Positions 10,244 through 30,221 of a DNA stretch of 34,046 nt are shown here, in pieces. The notes below the pieces were generated by a model, which saw only the letters and a list, made by a program, of their open reading frames with translations, searched no databases and was not told the DNA's origin. The translations under genes were made by a program, and so were the position numbers. Positions within the stretch are counted from its first letter, which is position 1. Each line of letters opens with the position of its first letter. This DNA comes from an uncultured Methanosarcinales archaeon (GTDB lineage Archaea; Nanobdellota; Nanobdellia; Woesearchaeales; CAYNLP01), in the NCBI GenBank assembly GCA_964398115.1, contig CAYNLP010000008.1, forward strand, positions 1-34,046, in the 5' to 3' direction.

Positions 10244-12442
10244 ATGATAGAAGGGTTCGAACCACGGCTTTACCAACAAACAATTCTCAACACAACCATT
10301 GAGAAAAACACCTTGGTAGTATTACCCACCGGTTTAGGTAAAACAGTAATAGCTATGATGCTAGCCGCACACCGCCTAAAAGAAATACCAGACAGCAAGA
10401 TAGTATTCCTAGCACCTACCAAGCCACTCGTGCAACAACACAAAAGAACCTTCGTAAAACACTTAGACACGGATGAAGAAACCATGCACGTCTTCACAGG
10501 AGACATAAGACCAGACAAAAGAGAAAAACTATGGCAAGACGCCAAGATAGTATTCTCCACCCCTCAAGGATTCGAAAACGACGTAATCAGCAGCAGAGTC
10601 AACCTTGAAGACGTAAGCCTAATGGTATTCGACGAAGCACACCGAGCCACAGGAGAATACAGCTACGTATTTATAGCAGAAAAATACATGACTCAAGCAC
10701 ACAACCCACGCGTCCTAGGACTCACGGCAAGTCCAGGAAGCGACCAGCAAAAAATCCGCAACGTGTGCGACAACCTCTACATCGACGAAATCGAATTAAG
10801 GACGGACGAAGACCCAGACGTAAAACCATACATACAAGATGTAGATATAGAAAGAATAACCATCGACCTACCCGACGACTTCGCACAAGTAATCAAATAC
10901 CTACGAGACTGCATGCAAAACAAACTAGAAAAAATCAAAGACTACGGCTACCTAACCGGCAGCGTCTCAAACTACAGCAGAAAAGACTTGCTCAAATTAC
11001 AAAAAGGAATGCAAAGCAAAATGGCCCAAGGAGAAAAAGACTGGGAACTCATGAAAAGCCTCAGCTTAAACGCCGAAGCCATGAAAGTACAACACGCACT
11101 CATACTAGCAGAAACACAAGGCATGGAAAGCCTCGTCAACTACATGAGAAGACTTCAAAAAGAAGCCAAGAACAGCCAAACCAAAGCAGTACAAAACCTC
11201 GTCAAAGACAAATACTTCAGAAGCGCTAAAGCCAAAGCCGAAAGCCTAATCGAACAAGGAGTAGAACACCCCAAAATGAAACGCTTGAAAAAAATCGTAG
11301 CGAGCGAACTAAACCAAAACCGCGACGCCAGGATAATAATATTCAACCAATACCGAGACCAAGTAGAAAAGCTCAAAAAAGAATTCGACGACATCGGATT
11401 TGCATGTGAAATGTTCGTCGGACAAATGAAGAAAGGAAACACGGGCATGAGCCAGAAAGAACAGAAACAAACCATAGAAAGATTTGAAGACGGAGAATTT
11501 AACATACTACTAGCAACAAGCGTAGCAGAAGAAGGCCTAGACATACCCGCCGTAGACCTCGTCGTATTCTACGAACCAATACCAAGCGCGGTAAGAACAG
11601 TACAAAGAAGAGGAAGAACAGGACGTCAAGAACAAGGAAAAGTCAAAGTACTCATAACCAAAGACACTGTAGACGAAGGATACCGATGGAGCGCACACCA
11701 CAAAGAAAAGAACATGATAGAAGCTATCAAAAACTTACAAGACGAATTCAACCCAGAACATGAAAAACCCACGCTTGACGAATACGTAGAAGAGGATCAA
11801 GTCACAATCTACGCGGACTATAGAGAAAAAGGCGGAGGCGTCATCAAAGAACTATCCAGAGAAAACGTCGACGTACAAATGAAAAGCATGGATGTCGGCG
11901 ACTACCTCCTTTCGGAAGACTTATGCGTTGAGTTCAAAACCGTACAGGACTTCGCCGACTCTGTTGTAGACGGCCGACTGCTAGAACAAATGAAAGACCT
12001 GAGCCAATACAAAAAACCACTCATGGTTATCGAAGGCGAAGAAGACATCTACGCAATGAGAAAAATGCATCCAAACGCAATCCGCGGAATGCTAGCCACA
12101 ATAATGTTCAATTACAACATACCAGTCTTCCAAACCAAAGACGCACACGAAACAGCAGGCTTCCTCAAACTACTGGCAAAGAGAGAACAAGAAGACAAAG
12201 ACACAGACTGGCAATTCCACACCAACAAACCCTTAACATTAAAGGAAAGACAAGAATACGTCGTGGCAGCCATGCCCGGCATCGGCAACAAACTAGCCAA
12301 ACCCTTACTCGAAGAATTCGGCAGTATCAAAAACTTAGTCAATGCAACTGAAGAAGAGCTCAAAAACGTCGACTTAATAGGAGATAAAAAAGCAGAACAG
12401 TTAAGAGAATTATTCGATACAGGGTATGACGATCAAGGCTGA
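10244..12442 (+). CDS. hef: Hef (FANCM/XPF-like) helicase-nuclease
   Basis: SF2 motifs LPTGLGKT, DEAH, TAS, ATSVAEEGLDIP and QRRGRTGR; ERCC4 nuclease GDY...VEFKT..DF; C-terminal HhH motifs (PGIG, DLIG). Confidence 0.96.
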   Translation: MIEGFEPRLYQQTILNTTIEKNTLVVLPTGLGKTVIAMMLAAHRLKEIPDSKIVFLAPTKPLVQQHKRTFVKHLDTDEETMHVFTGDIRPDKREKLWQDAKIVFSTPQGFENDVISSRVNLEDVSLMVFDEAHRATGEYSYVFIAEKYMTQAHNPRVLGLTASPGSDQQKIRNVCDNLYIDEIELRTDEDPDVKPYIQDVDIERITIDLPDDFAQVIKYLRDCMQNKLEKIKDYGYLTGSVSNYSRKDLLKLQKGMQSKMAQGEKDWELMKSLSLNAEAMKVQHALILAETQGMESLVNYMRRLQKEAKNSQTKAVQNLVKDKYFRSAKAKAESLIEQGVEHPKMKRLKKIVASELNQNRDARIIIFNQYRDQVEKLKKEFDDIGFACEMFVGQMKKGNTGMSQKEQKQTIERFEDGEFNILLATSVAEEGLDIPAVDLVVFYEPIPSAVRTVQRRGRTGRQEQGKVKVLITKDTVDEGYRWSAHHKEKNMIEAIKNLQDEFNPEHEKPTLDEYVEEDQVTIYADYREKGGGVIKELSRENVDVQMKSMDVGDYLLSEDLCVEFKTVQDFADSVVDGRLLEQMKDLSQYKKPLMVIEGEEDIYAMRKMHPNAIRGMLATIMFNYNIPVFQTKDAHETAGFLKLLAKREQEDKDTDWQFHTNKPLTLKERQEYVVAAMPGIGNKLAKPLLEEFGSIKNLVNATEEELKNVDLIGDKKAEQLRELFDTGYDDQG

Positions 12443-14580: not shown

Positions 14581-17085
14581 TTAACCCTGCTGATAATTCT
14601 TTTGTAATTTCTTGTGGAAAGAAGTAACATCTTCAATATTATTAATTGTTAGCTCAGTAGTGCTGCTTCCTATAGTTTGAATTTTTACCTTGCCATTATC
14701 AAAAATTTTATTCAAGAATCCTTCTTCTTTTCCAATGAAGTCGATTTTAGGGAATATTATGGACTTCTGAACTTTGTAAAAAACTCCTCTTCTACCTACC
14801 ACTCGATAGCTCTGAATACTGTATGACTTATTCTTCAAATATATAACCATATAACCAAGCAAAGCCGCTCCTCCCAACCCAACCCATAGTTGGAAAGCTG
14901 GTACAAATAAAGTTACAAGAGCGATAAGGAAGAAAGAGGGGATCACATGGTTCCAGATATCCTGCTCAGATTCCAACGTAGATCGAGCATATTCCTCTGC
15001 TTTATCTTTTAAATCGTCAAATTCCTTAGCAGATGGGCGACTATAGAAAATCACGTCAATCAAGTCATCCATCACCCTTATACCAGGAACGTATGATACT
15101 TTGAAGCTATTAGAAGCAACTCTCTTATTCTTCCCAGAACCAACAATATGCTCTCCCGCAATATTAAATTTGATAGATCCATAACTACAGAAAGGCCATC
15201 TCTTCGTCTCGATATCCTTCACATCATCATATGAGATATGATACTGAGAAGTAAAAAATATGCCTTCTTTGAAATAAACATGATCATCAAAAAATGTGAG
15301 ACGCTGTCTATCAAAGTAAAACTTCTTGTAAACTGCTATTAAACCAACTGCAACAACTATAATAGCGGAGAGAACATACCAGCTTTTTATTAGGAAGAAA
15401 CTTAAAACACCTAATAATAGAACTGTTAGTGGCAAAAATGCTCTTATCATACGCGTAAAGCCAAACTCAGGTTGTATCTCATAAACTTTTTCTGAACCAC
15501 GAATATTCTTCTTCTCTAGAATCTGCTTAACTAACTTATCATCTTTAGCCACATTCTTAAAAGAAACGTCCTTAACGGATCCGATTGACAAAAACTTTAA
15601 GGTAAAAGTGTTGAAAATCCAATCTATCAAGTTTTCTTTCACAACTACGCCCGTGACTTTGTCAAAAGAAAACTCTCTGTTCTTTTCCCATAAAAATTCA
15701 AACCTCTCCTCAACCCCTTTTTTCCTTAGGTGGAAGGAGTAGAAGTGTACCTTTAGTCCTGCCCAAGCAATACTTAATAGAATAAATACAACAAAAAACG
15801 TTGCTAACACGGGAATGTTAAATAGCTGTAATGAAGTAGCAATCTGGGAGATGATTACAAGAGATAAGAAAAAACCTATAATAGCAGAAGAAAACGCTGT
15901 ACGTCCAAATTCCATATTTAATTCTCCTGTTACATCCGACACCGACCTCTCTACTTTTGATTCTCCCCCCTTTTGTAACGACCTTTCTGAAACGGTCTTA
16001 TCTTTCTGACTGATTAAACTATCAATATTTTCTTCCATCTCTTTTCCGTTACGTACATTCCTAAATGTGACCTCCCTACCAGCTCCAGGAGAACTTATAA
16101 CAATATTGTACAATCCAAGCATCTTCTCTACAACCCCACGAGTCGTTTCACTATCAGACAAGTTCTCTACCGGCAGAAAAGCCCGGTGCTTGGTTAGAAA
16201 TCCCTCTGTATAATCAATATTATCCTCATAAATAAAGTACTCTCTAAGACTAAGATCAATGGCGTAAAGTAGCAGATGAGTTATAGCACCTAATCCTAAT
16301 GGAATTCCAAATAACAATCCACTTGTTTCAAAATTGGAGGGCATAGAGGTTAGAGAACTAAATCCAACAACAAATAGTGCAAACAACACCCCTCTCGATT
16401 GTGATGAAATATTCATATAACCAGTGAGTAATGCGAAAGCCCCCATCCCAATGAGAAATCCACCTACTATGATTACAAAACTCCCCACGCTAGAACTTAA
16501 TAAAGTCGTTATAGCACGGCCAACAGAAGTTGAACCCACTATGGCTAACAACCCAGCAAATAAAAACAGAAGGCCAACATCGACAGCCACGCCAACTTTA
16601 TCGGGAGACTCTTTCTGAACTAGATCGTCACGAGATATTTCAAACCCAACACCTTGTAATAGTTCTTCCATGTAGCTATACATTTCATCAGGTTTATCAA
16701 CAGACCTTAACATAATCTCAGAACCCCCACCACCAGCAGCTTCTACAATGACATCCCCTGTGCTGAAAATCATATTTTCAAGAAAAGGCTTCTCTAACTT
16801 TACATGTGTGACATTCTTCAACATAAGTTCGGTTTCACTGTCACTAAAAATTGAACCTCGCTTCCAAATAACTCTGTCCTGTTCAAAGACATAATTCTCT
16901 TTCGAATAAGATATGAATAAAGAAAAAACCCTATAAATAAACCAAACTCCAACTATTATCGAAGTTACTAACCTAAAACCAAAGCTAAAACCAATAACTG
17001 CTAGTAAAGAAAAAAACAAGATAGACTTTATCAGATTATAATAAATAAAAGCGCTCTTATTCGGCTTTAATTCAAATTCGGACAT
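14581..17085 (-). CDS. Large membrane protein with multiple bacterial PH (bPH_2) domains
   Basis: About five TM-pair plus Y....(G.F)...I...K...(ifg.G.V.I) units; start ATG 17085 (MSEFELKP). Confidence 0.85.
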   Translation of the reverse strand: MSEFELKPNKSAFIYYNLIKSILFFSLLAVIGFSFGFRLVTSIIVGVWFIYRVFSLFISYSKENYVFEQDRVIWKRGSIFSDSETELMLKNVTHVKLEKPFLENMIFSTGDVIVEAAGGGGSEIMLRSVDKPDEMYSYMEELLQGVGFEISRDDLVQKESPDKVGVAVDVGLLFLFAGLLAIVGSTSVGRAITTLLSSSVGSFVIIVGGFLIGMGAFALLTGYMNISSQSRGVLFALFVVGFSSLTSMPSNFETSGLLFGIPLGLGAITHLLLYAIDLSLREYFIYEDNIDYTEGFLTKHRAFLPVENLSDSETTRGVVEKMLGLYNIVISSPGAGREVTFRNVRNGKEMEENIDSLISQKDKTVSERSLQKGGESKVERSVSDVTGELNMEFGRTAFSSAIIGFFLSLVIISQIATSLQLFNIPVLATFFVVFILLSIAWAGLKVHFYSFHLRKKGVEERFEFLWEKNREFSFDKVTGVVVKENLIDWIFNTFTLKFLSIGSVKDVSFKNVAKDDKLVKQILEKKNIRGSEKVYEIQPEFGFTRMIRAFLPLTVLLLGVLSFFLIKSWYVLSAIIVVAVGLIAVYKKFYFDRQRLTFFDDHVYFKEGIFFTSQYHISYDDVKDIETKRWPFCSYGSIKFNIAGEHIVGSGKNKRVASNSFKVSYVPGIRVMDDLIDVIFYSRPSAKEFDDLKDKAEEYARSTLESEQDIWNHVIPSFFLIALVTLFVPAFQLWVGLGGAALLGYMVIYLKNKSYSIQSYRVVGRRGVFYKVQKSIIFPKIDFIGKEEGFLNKIFDNGKVKIQTIGSSTTELTINNIEDVTSFHKKLQKNYQQG

Positions 17086-17194
17086 ATGACAAAGAAATGA
17101 AAGCATATATTTAAAAATCTTCTCTATCAAAAAAACTAATTCCGAAAATATTAACCTCAAATTTAAATAACTAAATCTTCTCTAAAAAAATTAT

Positions 17195-18487
17195 ATGTTC
17201 ATAGCCAAAACGTTGTCTTTCTACAAAAGGGAAGACATACAAGAAGCAATAGTAGAACACGCCAAGGATAAAGAAGTCGCGGTGATGTACGGCGACAGAG
17301 GCTTCGGCAAAAGACCACAAACACTCAGTTATAAGAATGACGTGTTAGAAGTAGCAAAGAACAAAGCAACAAGCCTCCACTGCAGCGAAGAACTATGGAA
17401 CAACCCTTCACAACTCAGCGCGGATATGAGAAGAGAAGAACTAGACGACCTCCGCAAAGGATGGGACTTTCTTTTAGACATTGACTGCACCATATTTGAA
17501 TACAGCAAAATCGCAGCATACTACGTCGTAAAAGCACTACAATACTGCGACGTAAACAAAGACTCAATCACCGTAAAATTCAGCGGAAACAAAGGATTCC
17601 ACATCGGCATACCATGGGAAGCATTCCCCAAAAAGGTACAAGGAGAAAAAACCAAAAAACTATTCCCCGAAGCACCGAAACGCCTCGCAGAATACGTCAA
17701 ATTCCTAATAAGACAACCCGTAAAAGAAGAAATCAAGAAACGAGAAGGCAAAGACATCGACAAAATAAGCGACAAAGTAAACATACCAATAGACGAACTC
17801 AAAAAAGAAACCACCACAGGAGGAGTAGACCTAAACCCTGCCCCATTCATAGAAATCGACACCCTACTAATAAGTAGCAGACACCTCTACCGAATGCCAT
17901 ACAGCTTCCACGAAAAAAGCCAACTAGTAAGCGTACCAATACAAAAAAACGAAATCTTAGACTTCGAAAAAGAAATGGCCGAACCCGAAAACGTAGAAGT
18001 AAACGCCCTCTTCATGAACCGCGACGTAAAAGAAGGAAACGCCAAAGGCCTATTCGTAAGAGCATACGACTACCAACCAGAAATAGAAACTGAAGAAGAC
18101 AAGAAAGACGACCGAACCTTCGAACTACCTGAACACGCCATAGAAGAAGAATGCTTCCCACCATGTATCAAAAAAATATTAGCCGGGCTAGATGACGGCA
18201 GAAAAAGAGCAGTTTTCATACTAATAAACTTCCTCAAAACCTGTGGTTGGGGACACGAAGAAATAAAACAAAAACTATACGACTGGAACGAAAAAAACAA
18301 AGAACCACTCAGAGAAGTATACATCAAAGGCCAACTCAGATACAGCAAAAACAAAGACCCAGTTCCCCCACCCAATTGTGAAAAGAAAGAATACTACAAA
18401 GACATCGGCGTGAAATGCCCCGACAAATACTGCCGATACAAAAACCCAGCAAACTACGCAAAGAAATGCCACGAAAAAGAAAACTAA
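17195..18487 (+). CDS. priS: Fused DNA primase PriS-PriL (DPANN type)
   Basis: AEP motifs WDFLLDID, KFSGNKGFHI and R.PYS.HEK, followed by the PriL Fe-S C-terminal domain FPPCI...PPPNC...C..C..KNP. Confidence 0.93.
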   Translation: MFIAKTLSFYKREDIQEAIVEHAKDKEVAVMYGDRGFGKRPQTLSYKNDVLEVAKNKATSLHCSEELWNNPSQLSADMRREELDDLRKGWDFLLDIDCTIFEYSKIAAYYVVKALQYCDVNKDSITVKFSGNKGFHIGIPWEAFPKKVQGEKTKKLFPEAPKRLAEYVKFLIRQPVKEEIKKREGKDIDKISDKVNIPIDELKKETTTGGVDLNPAPFIEIDTLLISSRHLYRMPYSFHEKSQLVSVPIQKNEILDFEKEMAEPENVEVNALFMNRDVKEGNAKGLFVRAYDYQPEIETEEDKKDDRTFELPEHAIEEECFPPCIKKILAGLDDGRKRAVFILINFLKTCGWGHEEIKQKLYDWNEKNKEPLREVYIKGQLRYSKNKDPVPPPNCEKKEYYKDIGVKCPDKYCRYKNPANYAKKCHEKEN

Positions 18488-21884: not shown

Positions 21885-22568
21885 ATGGGACAAAAATACA
21901 CATTTCAAGGAAGCGAGCAACACACGGCTAAAGCACTTGGCAAAAGCCTCCCTATCAGCACTAAGCACAGCATAGAAATCTGCAAAGCCATCAAAGGGAG
22001 ACACATCAACAACGCCAAGAAAATGCTAGAAAAAGCTGCTAAAGAAGAAGAACCCATAAGCTTCACACGCTTCACCGAAGGAGCAGGTCACAAACCAAAC
22101 ATAGGAATGGGTAAGTTCCCAGTCAAAGCCTGCAAAAACATACTACAAATAGTAGAAAGCGCAGAAGCAAACGCACAAAACCAAGGACTAAGCAGCGACC
22201 TGAAAATAATAAGTGCTGTGGCAAACGAAGGACCACAAAGCTTCCGATACGGCAGGCACAGAGGACGAAAAGAAAAAAGCACACACGTCGAAATAGTGGT
22301 CCGAGAAGTACAACCAGAAGAACCAGAAATCGAAGAAGTAGAAGAAAAAGAAACAGAATCAGAGGAAACCCAAGAAAAAGAAGAAAGCGAAGACAAAGAA
22401 GAAGAGGGAGAAGATAAAGAAATCCCTGCTAGGAGCACTATAGAAAACAAGACTAAAGATGAAATTAAAGAATATGCAAGTGAAGAATGGAATATTGAAC
22501 TATCAACGAATGATTTGAAGGATGAAATGATCGACCAGCTATTCGAGGAAATCGGTGATAACAAATGA
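21885..22568 (+). CDS. rpl22: 50S ribosomal protein uL22 with acidic linker and C-terminal repeat module
   Basis: ISTKHSIEIC, GKFPVKA, SAEANA and THVEIVV, then a ~80-aa extension. Confidence 0.96.
   Translation: MGQKYTFQGSEQHTAKALGKSLPISTKHSIEICKAIKGRHINNAKKMLEKAAKEEEPISFTRFTEGAGHKPNIGMGKFPVKACKNILQIVESAEANAQNQGLSSDLKIISAVANEGPQSFRYGRHRGRKEKSTHVEIVVREVQPEEPEIEEVEEKETESEETQEKEESEDKEEEGEDKEIPARSTIENKTKDEIKEYASEEWNIELSTNDLKDEMIDQLFEEIGDNK
22416..22568 (+). repeat. 50-aa module, copy A (C-terminus of uL22)
   Basis: [50 protein letters not shown]. Confidence 0.95.
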
Positions 22569-23505
22569 TCGAAAGAAAATTCATACAACAAAACATGATG
22601 CAACAAAGGATTAAAGAATTCGTCAGCAACCAGCTCAAACGAGCAGGTCTAAGCGACGTAGACTTCCAAAGAACACCTTTGGGAGAAAAAATAGTCATAT
22701 ACGCGTCCAGACCAGGACTAGTAGTAGGAAGAGGAGGAAGCAATATTGCACAACTAACACAAGACCTCAAAGAAGAATTCGACTTGGAAAACCCACAAGT
22801 AGAAATCGAAGAAGTAGAAGAACCAGACCTCGACCCTAAAATAATCGCAGAAACCGTAGCAAACAGCCTCGAAAGATTCGGACCAACAAGGTTCAAAGGA
22901 ATAGGATACAGAGCCTTAAACGACGCAATGGACGCAGGAGCTCGAGGAGTAGAAATAGTTATCAGCGGACGAGTACCAAGCAGTCGAGCAAGAACATGGA
23001 GATTCTACGCAGGATACCTCAAAAAAGCAGGTGAAACCAGCATATCAAAAGTAAAAGAAGGATTCCACCTAGCAGTTATCAAAGCAGGAAGCGTCGGAAT
23101 AAAAGTAAGAGTCATGCCACCCGACGTAAGACTACCAGACGACGTAGAAATCAAAGGCGAAGACATTGGAGTCGAAGAAGTAGAAGACGAAGACACCCAA
23201 GAAGAAATAGAAGAAGCAAAGAAAGAAGCAGAAGAAGTCAAAGAAGAAATAGAAAAAGTGGAAGAAAAAGAAGAACCGGAAGAAAGCGAAGAAAGTCAAG
23301 AAGATGAAGAAGAGAAAGACGTACCGGCTCGAAGCACAGTCAAAAACAAGACCAAAGACGAAGAAATTGAACTCACGTACCAGCTCAGTGAACGCNNNNN
23401 NNNNNAGAATACGCAGCAGATGAGTGGAACGTTGAACTCAGCACTAACGACTTGAAGGATGAAATGATTGACCAACTATTCGAAGAAATAGGTGAAAACG
23501 AATGA
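22565..23505 (+). CDS. rps3: 30S ribosomal protein uS3 with acidic linker and C-terminal repeat module (spans an assembly gap)
   Basis: RTPLG, RPGLVVGRGG and GVEIVISG. After the N-gap, another frame reads [32 protein letters not shown] and stops at 23505, overlapping the rpl29 ATG. Confidence 0.93.
23315..23505 (+). repeat. 50-aa module, copy B (C-terminus of uS3), interrupted by the gap
   Basis: KDVPARSTVKNKTKDE..[gap]..[32 protein letters not shown]. Confidence 0.9.
23396..23405. other. Scaffold gap (10 N)
   Basis: Run of N bases. Confidence 1.
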
Positions 23506-23687
23506 AATACGAACGTATAAAGGATATGTCCCAAGAAGAAAAAATGGAACAGATAAGAGAAGCAGAAATGGAACTCATCAAACTATACAGTCAAGTCAGT
23601 ACTGGGACACCGCCAGAAAACCCTGGCAAAATAAAAAACTTAAGGAGGACGATCGCCCGTATAAAGACGGCACTAAAAAATGAGTGA
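23502..23687 (+). CDS. rpl29: 50S ribosomal protein uL29
   Basis: ENPGKIKNLRRTIARIKT. Confidence 0.96.
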   Translation: MKYERIKDMSQEEKMEQIREAEMELIKLYSQVSTGTPPENPGKIKNLRRTIARIKTALKNE

Positions 23688-23988
23688 AGTATGCGGAAAG
23701 TGCGGATTACCTGAAGACCTTTGCGTCTGCGAAGATATCGCAAAGGAACAACAAACCATTACAGTAACAACAGAAAAACGAAAGTTCGGCAAAGACTACA
23801 CAGTGATTGAAGGCTTGAAAGAAAGCGAGATTGACATGAAAGATCTCGCAAAAAAACTGAAAACACAGTTCGCCTGCGGAGGCACTGTGAAAGAAGGAAA
23901 GATAGAACTTCAAAGAGACCACACAAAGGAAATCAAATCCGTACTTGTAGAAGAAGGCTTCCCACCTGAAAGCATACAGGTAAAATGA
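23680..23988 (+). CDS. sui1: Translation initiation factor aIF1 (SUI1)
   Basis: CGKCGLPEDLCVC, LAKKLK..FACGGT and IELQ.DH. Confidence 0.95.
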   Translation: MSEVCGKCGLPEDLCVCEDIAKEQQTITVTTEKRKFGKDYTVIEGLKESEIDMKDLAKKLKTQFACGGTVKEGKIELQRDHTKEIKSVLVEEGFPPESIQVK

Positions 23989-24212
23989 AACGGGAAGAAA
24001 TCATAGGTAAGACGATGAAAGTAGTAGATTCAAATAATCAGGACATAGTAGGCATCTGCGGAAAAGTCGTGGATGAAACTAGAAACACGTTTAAGATAAA
24101 AAACGACAATATAAAGACCATACTTAAAAAAGGCACTACATTCCGTATCGACGACGAAACAATAGAAGGAGACGAGATAATGATGAGACCTGAAGAAAGG
24201 GTGAAACTATGA
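23985..24212 (+). CDS. rnp1: Ribonuclease P protein component 1 (Rpp29/Pop4)
   Basis: EIIG...VVDS.N...GI.GKVVDETRNT and RPEERVK. Confidence 0.92.
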   Translation: MKREEIIGKTMKVVDSNNQDIVGICGKVVDETRNTFKIKNDNIKTILKKGTTFRIDDETIEGDEIMMRPEERVKL

Positions 24213-24802
24213 GCAAAGTAGTACAAGAAGGATGGAAACCAGAAGAAACATGCGAAGATGACAAATGCCCATACCACGGCAGCCTGTCACTACGAGGAAG
24301 AACCTTCACCGGAAGAGTAACCGGAGACAGGATGAGAAAAACAATAACCGTCGAATGGGATACTAAAAAGAAATATCCAAAATACGAAAGATTTGCTAGA
24401 ACCACTGCAAGTATCAAAGCACACAATCCACCTTGTATAGACGCAGAAACAGGACAAACCGTGAAAGTAGCAGAAACCAGAAGGCTATCCAAAACTAAAA
24501 ACTTCGTAGTAGTAGAAATAATCGATGAAGATACAACAATAATTGAAAGCGAAGAACCAAGCGCAGTGACAGAAGAAAAAGAAGGGCCAGAAGAGAAAGA
24601 ACCGGAAGAAAGCGAAGACACAGAAGAAACAAAAGAAGATGAAGATGAGAAAGAAGTCCCGCCAAGAAGTTCGGTAGAAAGAATGACCAAAGACGAAATC
24701 AAACAATATGCTGACGACCACTGGAATGTTGAACTATCAACGAACGATTTAAAGGATGAAATGATTGACCAACTATTCGAAGAAATAGGTGATCAAGAAT
24801 GA
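24209..24802 (+). CDS. rps17: 30S ribosomal protein uS17 with acidic linker and C-terminal repeat module
   Basis: [21 protein letters not shown] and [13 protein letters not shown], then a ~90-aa extension. Confidence 0.96.
24650..24802 (+). repeat. 50-aa module, copy C (C-terminus of uS17)
   Basis: [50 protein letters not shown]. Confidence 0.95.
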
Positions 24803-29483: not shown

Positions 29484-30221
29484 ATGGCTGAAGAACAAGA
29501 AGAACCTGAAGAGGAAGAACTCCTCCCCAAATGGGAGCCAAGAACCAAACTAGGAAGAAAAGTAAAGAACAGAGAAATTAGAGACATCGACGAAATCCTC
29601 GACAGAGGAGAAGTAATAATGGAAGAAGAAATAGTAGACGCACTCCTAGACCTAGAAGACGACTTAATCCTAGTAGGACAAAGCAAAGGAAAATTCGGAG
29701 GAGGACAAAGAAGAGTATTCAAACAAACACAGAAAAAGACCAGAGAAGGAAACAAACCAAGCTTTACTGCAATGGCTGTAGTTGGCGACCGAAAAGGACA
29801 CTTCGGAACAGGACTAGGAAAAGCAAAAGAAACCGTGCCGGCAAGAGACAAAGCACAAAGAACCGCCAAGAAAAACTTATTCAAGATTAGAAGAGGATGC
29901 GGAAGTTGGAGATGTGGATGTCAAGGACCACACAGCATCCCCTTCGCAGTAGAAGGCAGATGCGGAAGTGTAAGAATAAAACTAATGCCAGCGCCAAAAG
30001 GCAAAGGACTAGTAACAGAAGGCGAAGTTCAAAAAGCACTCGAACTCGCAGGTATCGAAGACGTTTGGAGCAAAACATTCGGACACACTGAAAACAAGAT
30101 AAACCTTATCAAAGCGTTAGAAGACGCGTTAAGAAAACTAATGACAACCAAACTCAACGCAGAAAGTAATCAAAACATCAAAGTATACGAAGGCAGTATA
30201 GAGGGAGACCATGGCGTCTAA
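29484..30221 (+). CDS. rps5: 30S ribosomal protein uS5
   Basis: WEPRTKLGR, RGCGSW.C.C..PHSIP and PAPKG.GLV. Confidence 0.97.
   Translation: MAEEQEEPEEEELLPKWEPRTKLGRKVKNREIRDIDEILDRGEVIMEEEIVDALLDLEDDLILVGQSKGKFGGGQRRVFKQTQKKTREGNKPSFTAMAVVGDRKGHFGTGLGKAKETVPARDKAQRTAKKNLFKIRRGCGSWRCGCQGPHSIPFAVEGRCGSVRIKLMPAPKGKGLVTEGEVQKALELAGIEDVWSKTFGHTENKINLIKALEDALRKLMTTKLNAESNQNIKVYEGSIEGDHGV

Follow-up and report, generated by a model that had tools for sequence, protein, structure and literature searches.

A mobile module of predicted helix-extension-helix fold on acidic tails of ribosomal proteins in a DPANN archaeon and on diverse archaeal and bacterial proteins

Introduction

In the ribosomal stalk, flexible linkers end in folded domains or peptides, and each ribosome has several of them. 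Charged tails of ribosomal proteins are known already, and so is the helix-extension-helix (HeH) fold class with its SAP, Rho N-terminal (Rho_N) and LEM-like members. SAP-type domains contact phosphate at the N-termini of their helices, and in the LEM/HeH proteins of the eukaryotic inner nuclear membrane an N-terminal domain is followed by a membrane segment. In part of one published account, Rho-N/SAP HeH domains are generally predicted to bind double-stranded DNA (PMC5512222). Here we describe a stretch of 34,046 nucleotides from an uncultured archaeon (contig CAYNLP010000008.1, positions 1 to 34,046 of the forward strand, GenBank assembly GCA_964398115.1; called the window throughout), in which the ribosomal proteins uL22, uS17 and very likely uS3 continue past their cores into a long acidic linker and end in one shared module of 48 residues. 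Extra folded domains on ribosomal proteins are rare, and the same domain on three of them within one operon is unusual. What is new is a specific, mobile HeH module which is shared by archaea and bacteria and is carried by many ribosomal proteins, a sigma factor and membrane proteins; a literature search, whose coverage did not include preprint supplements, found no description of these fusions of ribosomal proteins with the module.

Results

All three genes lie on the forward strand, and the cores of uL22, uS3 and uS17, each of which scores above the Pfam gathering score and stands within a conserved operon, are followed by the linkers and module copies listed below, with expectation values (E) where a profile was matched.

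21885..22301, forward strand: uL22 core, residues 1-139 (Pfam Ribosomal_L22 at residues 18-139, E 5.6e-15, 55.8 bits against a cut-off of 28)
22302..22421, forward strand: uL22 acidic linker, 40 aa, 57% D/E, net charge -18 (from composition; GAA-rich low-complexity repeats)
22422..22568, forward strand: module copy 1 (uL22), 48 aa plus stop (profile E 5.9e-28; AlphaFold2 predicted local distance difference test, pLDDT, 89.4)
22565..23179, forward strand: uS3 core, residues 1-205 (Pfam KH_2 E 5.4e-17, 61.8 bits; Ribosomal_S3_C E 4.1e-15, 56.5 bits)
23180..23317, forward strand: uS3 acidic linker, 46 aa, 59% D/E, net charge -21 (from composition)
23318..23362, forward strand: N-terminal 15 residues of module copy 2 (DVPARSTVKNKTKDE), in the uS3 frame (profile positions 2-15, independent E-value, i-E, 0.0049)
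23363..23395, forward strand: 11 non-module codons (33 nt) preceding the gap, the final 24 nt found nowhere else in the window
23396..23405, no strand: scaffold gap of 10 N inside module copy 2 (from the sequence)
23407..23505, forward strand: C-terminal 32 residues of module copy 2 (23407-23502) plus stop (profile E 2.5e-18)
24209..24532, forward strand: uS17 core, residues 1-108 (Pfam Ribosomal_S17 at residues 35-103, E 8.1e-22, 77.6 bits)
24533..24655, forward strand: uS17 acidic linker, 41 aa, 51% D/E, net charge -17 (from composition; predicted disordered)
24656..24802, forward strand: module copy 3 (uS17), 48 aa plus stop (profile E 3.8e-27; PHROG 8608 E 6.1e-5; pLDDT 91-96 in the full-length model)

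As seen from this list, uL22 (21885-22568, 227 aa, its start taken as the ATG directly 3' of the uS19 stop) and uS17 (24209-24802, 197 aa) are unbroken single open reading frames (ORFs). A preliminary description of this DNA had all three proteins running on into an acidic linker and the shared module, which holds for uL22 and uS17, while the uS3 copy is split by the gap and frame-shifted. After the gap its C-terminal part is in another frame than uS3 and its stop overlaps the uL29 ATG, so that the uS3 fusion cannot be read as one ORF in the present assembly. The fusion is very likely real, as its halves are anchored in uS3 and beside uL29, and the 11 stray codons at 23363-23395 are possibly a contig-end artefact at a repeat. 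The stop of every module copy overlaps the ATG of the next gene as ATGA (three of three, at the starts of uS3, uL29 and uL14), and when the window was translated in six frames the module profile picked out exactly these three copies, the next match having E 0.6.

Alignment confirmed that twenty consecutive module residues are identical in all three copies, and the match of 37 out of 50 positions reported earlier between the uL22 and uS17 modules was obtained when the preceding shared Lys was counted (36 of 49 without it). Within the invariant twenty codons the copies differ at 6-11 of 60 bases, and the synonymous differences noted before are indeed there, including Ser as TCA in uL22 and uS17 versus AGC in uS3. 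By the Nei-Gojobori method the ratio of nonsynonymous to synonymous divergence (dN/dS) was 0.12 for uL22/uS17 and 0.14 for uS3/uS17; in the uL22/uS3 pair the synonymous proportion (pS = 0.81) is saturated, with a nonsynonymous proportion (pN) of 0.11. The module DNA is identical at 108/141, 114/147 and 109/141 positions in the three pairs, a repeat comparison gave 71-82% identity between the copies, and a repeat finder carried the homology ~80 nt into the linker at 71-75% identity. The three copies are thus old paralogues kept by purifying selection and not assembly duplicates or the product of a collapse, in agreement with the selection at the protein level that had been argued for. One could suppose instead that collapsed or misjoined repeats, or a chimeric assembly, placed copies foreign to the ribosomal protein genes beside them, pointing to the 10-N gap within the uS3 copy with 33 nt directly ahead of it that fit nothing, and to long exact DNA stretches common to the uS3 and uS17 copies which could confuse an assembler. 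However, 18-29% of the bases differ among the copies, chiefly synonymously, two of the fusions are unbroken ORFs, the uS3 copy is anchored on both sides (by the uS3 frame upstream and the overlap with the uL29 start downstream) and like fusions occur in independent assemblies from other sources; an artefact, already largely refuted, is barely credible.

For the fold, the module was modelled with AlphaFold2 from a 30-sequence alignment and the full-length uS17 from a 43-row alignment. The module alone (mean pLDDT 89.4) was predicted to form a short helix (residues 5-9), a helix (13-24), an extended loop (25-33) and a second long helix (34-47), which is the arrangement of two helices and an extended loop over ~35-45 residues expected of an HeH domain. 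In the uS17 model the module helices fall at residues 161-172 and 182-196, the beta-barrel core and the module both exceed pLDDT 90, and linker residues 109-150 reach only 44-60 with no secondary structure; as modelled, uS17 is a folded head on a disordered tether. Since the linker is predicted to be disordered, the flexible display of the module that had been proposed is plausible.

The earlier assignment of the module to the Rho_N/SAP/LEM-like class stands as regards the predicted fold and a series of weak signals for the same class, and falls short in that no Pfam threshold was reached and no solved structure was matched significantly. A Pfam scan of the window copies gave no SAP, Rho_N or HeH match at E <= 1. 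Their relatives gave matches below threshold to SAP (E 0.012-0.023; 14.8-15.7 bits, cut-off 23.9), Rho_N (E 0.033; 14.6 bits, cut-off 24.9), DEK_C and Ish1. NCBIfam held no credible match for the module, and a sequence search of the PDB with the three-copy profile found no credible relative, the best being Sus1 at E 0.14; the same search with the whole-carrier alignment returned only uS4 and DsbA structures by way of other carrier parts and is uninformative on the module. With Foldseek none of six PDB matches reached E <= 0.001. The best fold matches, namely the SAP domain of SLX4 (7bu5_B, template modelling (TM) score 0.58) and YqbF (2hjq, TM 0.64), are non-significant for so short a domain, as is that to the Rho N-terminus (1pv4_E, TM 0.65, root-mean-square deviation (rmsd) 1.7 Å over 39 columns, Foldseek E 8.4).

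The sole sequence match judged meaningful is that to PHROG 8608 ('prohead protease inhibitor', the module lying at the N-terminus of T4 Inh-like proteins), in which residues 8-45 of the window uS17 module align with positions 8-45 at E 6.1e-5. This profile was matched by 13 of 13 scanned family members at E <= 0.01 (lowest E 5.9e-8); all 13 matches end at profile positions 44-48, and the rest of the Inh protein (positions ~50-165) is unmatched. Against predicted viral structures, Foldseek likewise placed T4-like Inh at the top (probability 0.99-1.00, TM 0.78, rmsd 0.5-0.7 Å, 32-33% identity, E 0.2-0.3), and endonuclease VII-type proteins were also among the top viral matches. In sequence, the C-terminus of endonuclease VII (PHROG 3281) was matched by a window copy at E 0.0057 and by the carrier P0047, described below, at 1e-6, and a weaker PHROG match fell on the C-terminus of an Arc-like repressor family. 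Scores of 0.80-0.86 in a protein atlas toward phage Rho_N clusters are leads only. We read the module as a divergent HeH member whose nearest kin are phage modules and which stands outside every curated family.

When 1.84 billion representatives were searched exhaustively by HMMER with the three-copy profile, only 27 proteins came up at E <= 1e-3, 12 of them at E <= 1e-10, and word-based searches added a few further carriers. We examined 31 clear carriers outside the window, classified them with Pfam and aligned 30, leaving out the sigma factor. Thirteen of the 31 are ribosomal proteins: uS17 (P0002), eL14-like KOW proteins (P0035, P0039, P0048), proteins that join eL34 with an eL14-like part (P0038, P0040), eL31 (P0041), uS4 (P0043, P0051, P0189), eS6 (P0044, P0052) and a bacterial uL22 (P0054). 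One is a bacterial sigma-70 factor with three tandem N-terminal copies (P0050). The remaining 17 include nine with hydrophobic membrane-type segments, among them a PspC-domain protein and small two-segment proteins, as well as a stand-alone form of 52 residues (P0053); several small carriers of obscure origin may be phage-derived. The module sits at the C-terminus, or not more than ~11 residues from it, in 28 of the 30 aligned carriers. In the other two, P0047 and P0056, it is N-terminal and precedes a membrane segment, which in P0056 is followed by a DsbA-like domain; the layout of both would imply a cytoplasmic module, in P0056 because the DsbA-like domain lies beyond the membrane segment. 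All ten carriers that were looked up are singleton clusters. Some carriers have further peculiarities: in P0051 and P0189 an extra segment of ~130 residues, of no Pfam family, lies between the S4 domain and the acidic linker with the module, and in P0038 and P0040 the eL34 and eL14-like KOW parts form one polypeptide with the module at its end. In P0060, a protein of 747 aa, a related unit (…KDI.QYA.DQLGVELN…) recurs eight times or more; its match to the module profile was weak (E 6e-6, over 8 stretches), and it may consist of tandem HeH units akin to the module.

A genome scan with a single peptide pattern, over a collection that holds neither the genome of the window nor the archaeal carriers, gave four loci in two genomes of the Candidate Phyla Radiation (CPR), Candidatus Magasanikbacteria and Candidatus Paceibacteria. 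Two of the loci are uL22 genes that end in an acidic linker and the module, with neighbouring uS3 and uS17 genes that lack it (L001:3572-4129 and L002:3575-4135); the uS19 beside them has a short poly-Glu tail. The other two are rpoD genes downstream of dnaG with three tandem N-terminal modules (L003:2106-3827 and L004:1990-3717), joined by Arg/Lys/Glu-rich linkers and taking the place of region 1.1, Pfam finding only regions 1.2, 2, 3 and 4. The modules of archaeal and bacterial carriers are 60-70% identical, and the window uL22 module is 93% identical to that of the eL14-like P0035. In a module tree of 48 columns, 18 of 32 inner branches were unresolved and good support was limited to the CPR uL22 group and two small pairs; on so poorly resolved a tree no claim is made about donor or direction of transfer.

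The named uS3 relatives are Woesearchaeota or Nanoarchaeota, which fits the DPANN origin assumed for this DNA. The closest uS3 (P0069, 84% identical) has an acidic tail without the module, and its contig measures 12,176 bp, as does that of the module-bearing uS17 P0002, so that both probably lie on one contig. Acidic tails without the module are the rule among the uS3 relatives at 75-84% identity; the more distant ones have Lys-rich tails, and the uS17 relatives also bear charged tails without the module. Charged tails are therefore common in the lineage, and the module is an add-on whose set of carriers varies by genome. Searching for further carriers with a profile of the three copies, as the preliminary description had proposed, thus brought up eL14, eL34, eL31, uS4, eS6, CPR uL22, RpoD and membrane proteins, and the notion that the decoration is peculiar to uL22, uS3 and uS17 has to be given up, since in relatives the module is found on six or more further families of ribosomal proteins, and the closest uS3 is without it. 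The three copies per 70S ribosome, spread over both subunits, that had been envisaged are only a lower bound from the window. The module family is rare, mobile and promiscuous.

The net charge of the module ranges from -2 to -13 among the carriers (median -7) and is -8 to -9 in the window copies. Of the 30 aligned carriers, 16 have a conserved 10-residue acidic/polar loop without any change and 22, from both domains, have it with no more than one (ELST[ND]DLK[DK]E); since the loop is nearly constant across archaea and bacteria, a partner would have to exist in both. The loop before helix 2 has one basic and four acidic residues in the window copies, and in P0064-P0066, which are among the most distant and possibly phage-derived members, it is basic (RKKK or RKTK, four basic residues). 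The invariant T12-K13 and K34 stand at the N-termini of the two helices. The 19 non-ribosomal ORFs of the window have isoelectric points (pI) of 4.5-9.7 and are only moderately acidic; given these values, we do not put forward extreme 'salt-in' halophily as the cause of the acidity. From the sequences, the charge of the module would argue against direct binding of nucleic acid.

The setting of the three genes is a classical archaeal ribosomal protein operon, in which the genes between uS3 and uS17 carry no module. Those in the operon were identified with Pfam (the intervening ones through Ribosomal_L29, SUI1 and RNase_P-MRP_p29), except uL23, uL2, uS19, uL14 and SecY, which were identified by eye from the translations.

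Operon order, forward strand: uL3-uL4-uL23-uL2-uS19-uL22-uS3-uL29-aIF1/SUI1-RNase P Rpp29-uS17-uL14, onward to SecY
23502..24212, forward strand: module-free genes uL29 (23502-23687), aIF1/SUI1 (23680-23988) and RNase P Rpp29 (23985-24212)

The uS5 protein (29484-30221) begins with an acidic N-terminal extension (MAEEQEEPEEEELL…), so that acidic extensions in this operon are not confined to the three module carriers. Elsewhere in the window, a single ORF of 430 aa (17195-18487) has a primase small-subunit domain at residues 112-249 (E 1.9e-5) and a large-subunit domain at 304-398 (E 2.1e-6) and resembles a fusion of PriS and PriL primase subunits. At 10244-12442, a Hef-like protein of 732 aa combines a DEAD/Helicase_C helicase, an ERCC4 nuclease and a helix-hairpin-helix tail, and an 859 aa protein on the reverse strand (14581-17160) has three bacterial PH (bPH_2) domains as its sole recognised parts.

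Discussion

Across the relatives, and with the three proteins of the window included, the module occurs on at least nine ribosomal protein families of both subunits, which is still more unusual than its presence on three within one operon. We tentatively prefer, as a possible function, that of a mobile docking tag on polyanionic tethers, which would bind either itself or a partner common to archaea and bacteria. The polyanionic linker would be repelled by ribosomal RNA (rRNA) and would thereby hold the module off the ribosome surface, forming a flexible arm that could extend to at most some 10-15 nm, and docking would take place through the conserved acidic/polar loop. A protein partner is favoured because the module is acidic and its loop constant across the domains; the simplest partners would be a universal protein or a second copy of the module, the latter through homotypic 'sticker and spacer' contacts. 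By means of such a tag, ribosomes, sigma factor with RNA polymerase and a few membrane proteins could share one address, and transcription, translation and membrane insertion might in this way be co-localised in very small cells. Among the partners suggested earlier, RNA polymerase and the neighbouring module receive circumstantial backing from the triplicate on the CPR sigma-70 factor and from the copies on membrane proteins that are predicted to be cytoplasmic.

Several observations weigh against a docking tag for a protein partner. The context of the family is linked to DNA, through the C-termini of phage endonuclease VII and the Arc-like repressor and through the sigma factor carrier, and acidic proteins of salt-adapted organisms can still bind DNA. 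The decorated ribosomal proteins vary between relatives, and a uS3 of 84% identity has the acidic tail and not the module; it seems that no one site on the ribosome is needed, and cells may be able to do without the tag. The genome of the window itself has no known carrier of the membrane-anchored or sigma type, and the two CPR genomes yielded only uL22 and RpoD in a scan made with one peptide pattern. The C-termini of uL22, uS3 and uS17 have positions at the ribosome surface which we take as given, and a role at one particular site, such as mRNA entry or tunnel exit, is doubted because the carriers vary and come from many parts of both subunits.

The main rival to the docking tag is direct binding of double-stranded DNA by the module, in the manner of SAP, LEM-like and HeH domains, which would tie ribosomes, the sigma factor and certain membrane proteins to the chromosome, favouring co-transcriptional translation and transertion. 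We hold this to be rather unlikely. It draws on the general prediction for Rho-N/SAP domains cited in the Introduction, on the weak SAP, Rho_N, DEK_C and Ish1 matches of the relatives, on the PHROG matches to the C-termini of endonuclease VII and the Arc-like repressor, and on the three copies at the N-terminus of a DNA-binding sigma-70 factor with Arg/Lys-rich linkers. The layout of P0047 and P0056 resembles that of the LEM/HeH proteins of the inner nuclear membrane, and T12-K13 and K34 stand where SAP-type domains contact phosphate. Against this, the window modules have a net charge of -8 to -9 and a loop with one basic and four acidic residues, as compared with four basic ones in P0064-P0066, the ribosomal linkers (net -17 to -21) would repel DNA, and the pI values of the non-ribosomal ORFs leave salt-driven acidification as no obvious cause of the charge. 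The same charge argument meets the proposal that the module binds mRNA or rRNA in the manner of Rho-N, as in plant RHON1, and captures transcripts or bridges the subunits. The N-terminal domain of Rho ranks with the best matches in structure, the atlas leads point toward phage Rho_N clusters and RHON1 is called an RNA-binding protein in part of its published description; however, the structural match at E 8.4 is non-significant, the atlas scores are no more than leads and the membrane-anchored carriers would be left unexplained, which makes binding of RNA highly improbable in our view.

It could also be that the tails are passive, balancing the charge or keeping up the solubility of basic ribosomal proteins or forming a brush against aggregation, with the folded end as a cap or assembly aid that has no specific partner. 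This we consider improbable, although the uS3 relatives at 75-84% identity with acidic, module-less tails and the distant ones with Lys-rich tails mean that charged low-complexity tails are general in the lineage and track composition, the uS17 relatives have charged tails without the module too, and the decorated set varies among genomes. A passive tail would not be expected to keep twenty residues invariant in three paralogues whose synonymous sites are saturated, nor the module at 60-70% identity between archaeal and bacterial carriers; furthermore, the module is found on non-basic, non-ribosomal proteins and by itself in 52 aa, and the conservation of an exposed loop points to a specific interface.

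A wider form of the docking tag is more speculative, and we think it unlikely as it stands: a horizontally shared 'address tag' system of ultra-small DPANN and CPR symbionts, in which HeH stickers on disordered charged spacers would link ribosomes (each with several stickers, on both subunits), the primary sigma factor with RNA polymerase and membrane-anchored proteins into a weakly cross-linked network or condensate that would organise transcription, translation and membrane insertion, viruses being the likely vehicle by which the module spread between archaea and bacteria.

The occurrence of a nearly identical module in triplicate on a CPR housekeeping sigma factor, and in a predicted cytoplasmic position on membrane proteins, suggests a simple, transferable means of placing the gene-expression machinery in tiny cells. 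If a partner were found, one could directly test whether transcription, translation and membrane targeting are physically coupled in DPANN and CPR organisms, and a movement of the domain between archaea, bacteria and probably their viruses would be documented.

Comparison with known systems

The module is like the SAP, Rho-N and LEM-like HeH domains in its ~40 residues with two helices and an extended loop, and in the same rhythm of T-K-x-E-[IL] at helix 1 and K-x-E-M-[IV] at helix 2. It differs from them in its strong acidity, its loop being acidic/polar and the same place in SAP-type domains basic, and in being carried by ribosomal proteins, of which we found no published report for such domains. 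The likeness to the Rho terminator is confined to the ~40-residue fold, as no carrier has the RNA-binding OB fold or the RecA-type ATPase. The phage Inh protein (PHROG 8608) is alike over the ~40-residue module, and the rest of its 165-position profile, including the protease-inhibitor part, is absent here. The charged tails of DPANN ribosomal proteins, Lys-rich or Glu/Asp-rich as in the uS3 and uS17 relatives, have the same position and a similar length, but unlike the tails described here they do not end in a folded, conserved domain. The ribosomal stalk (bL12, archaeal P1) is similar in principle, since several small elements on flexible linkers reach for a partner. The stalk, however, is one defined site which recruits translational GTPases, whereas the module hangs from different proteins on both subunits, and its set of carriers, unlike the stalk, varies between relatives and includes non-ribosomal proteins.

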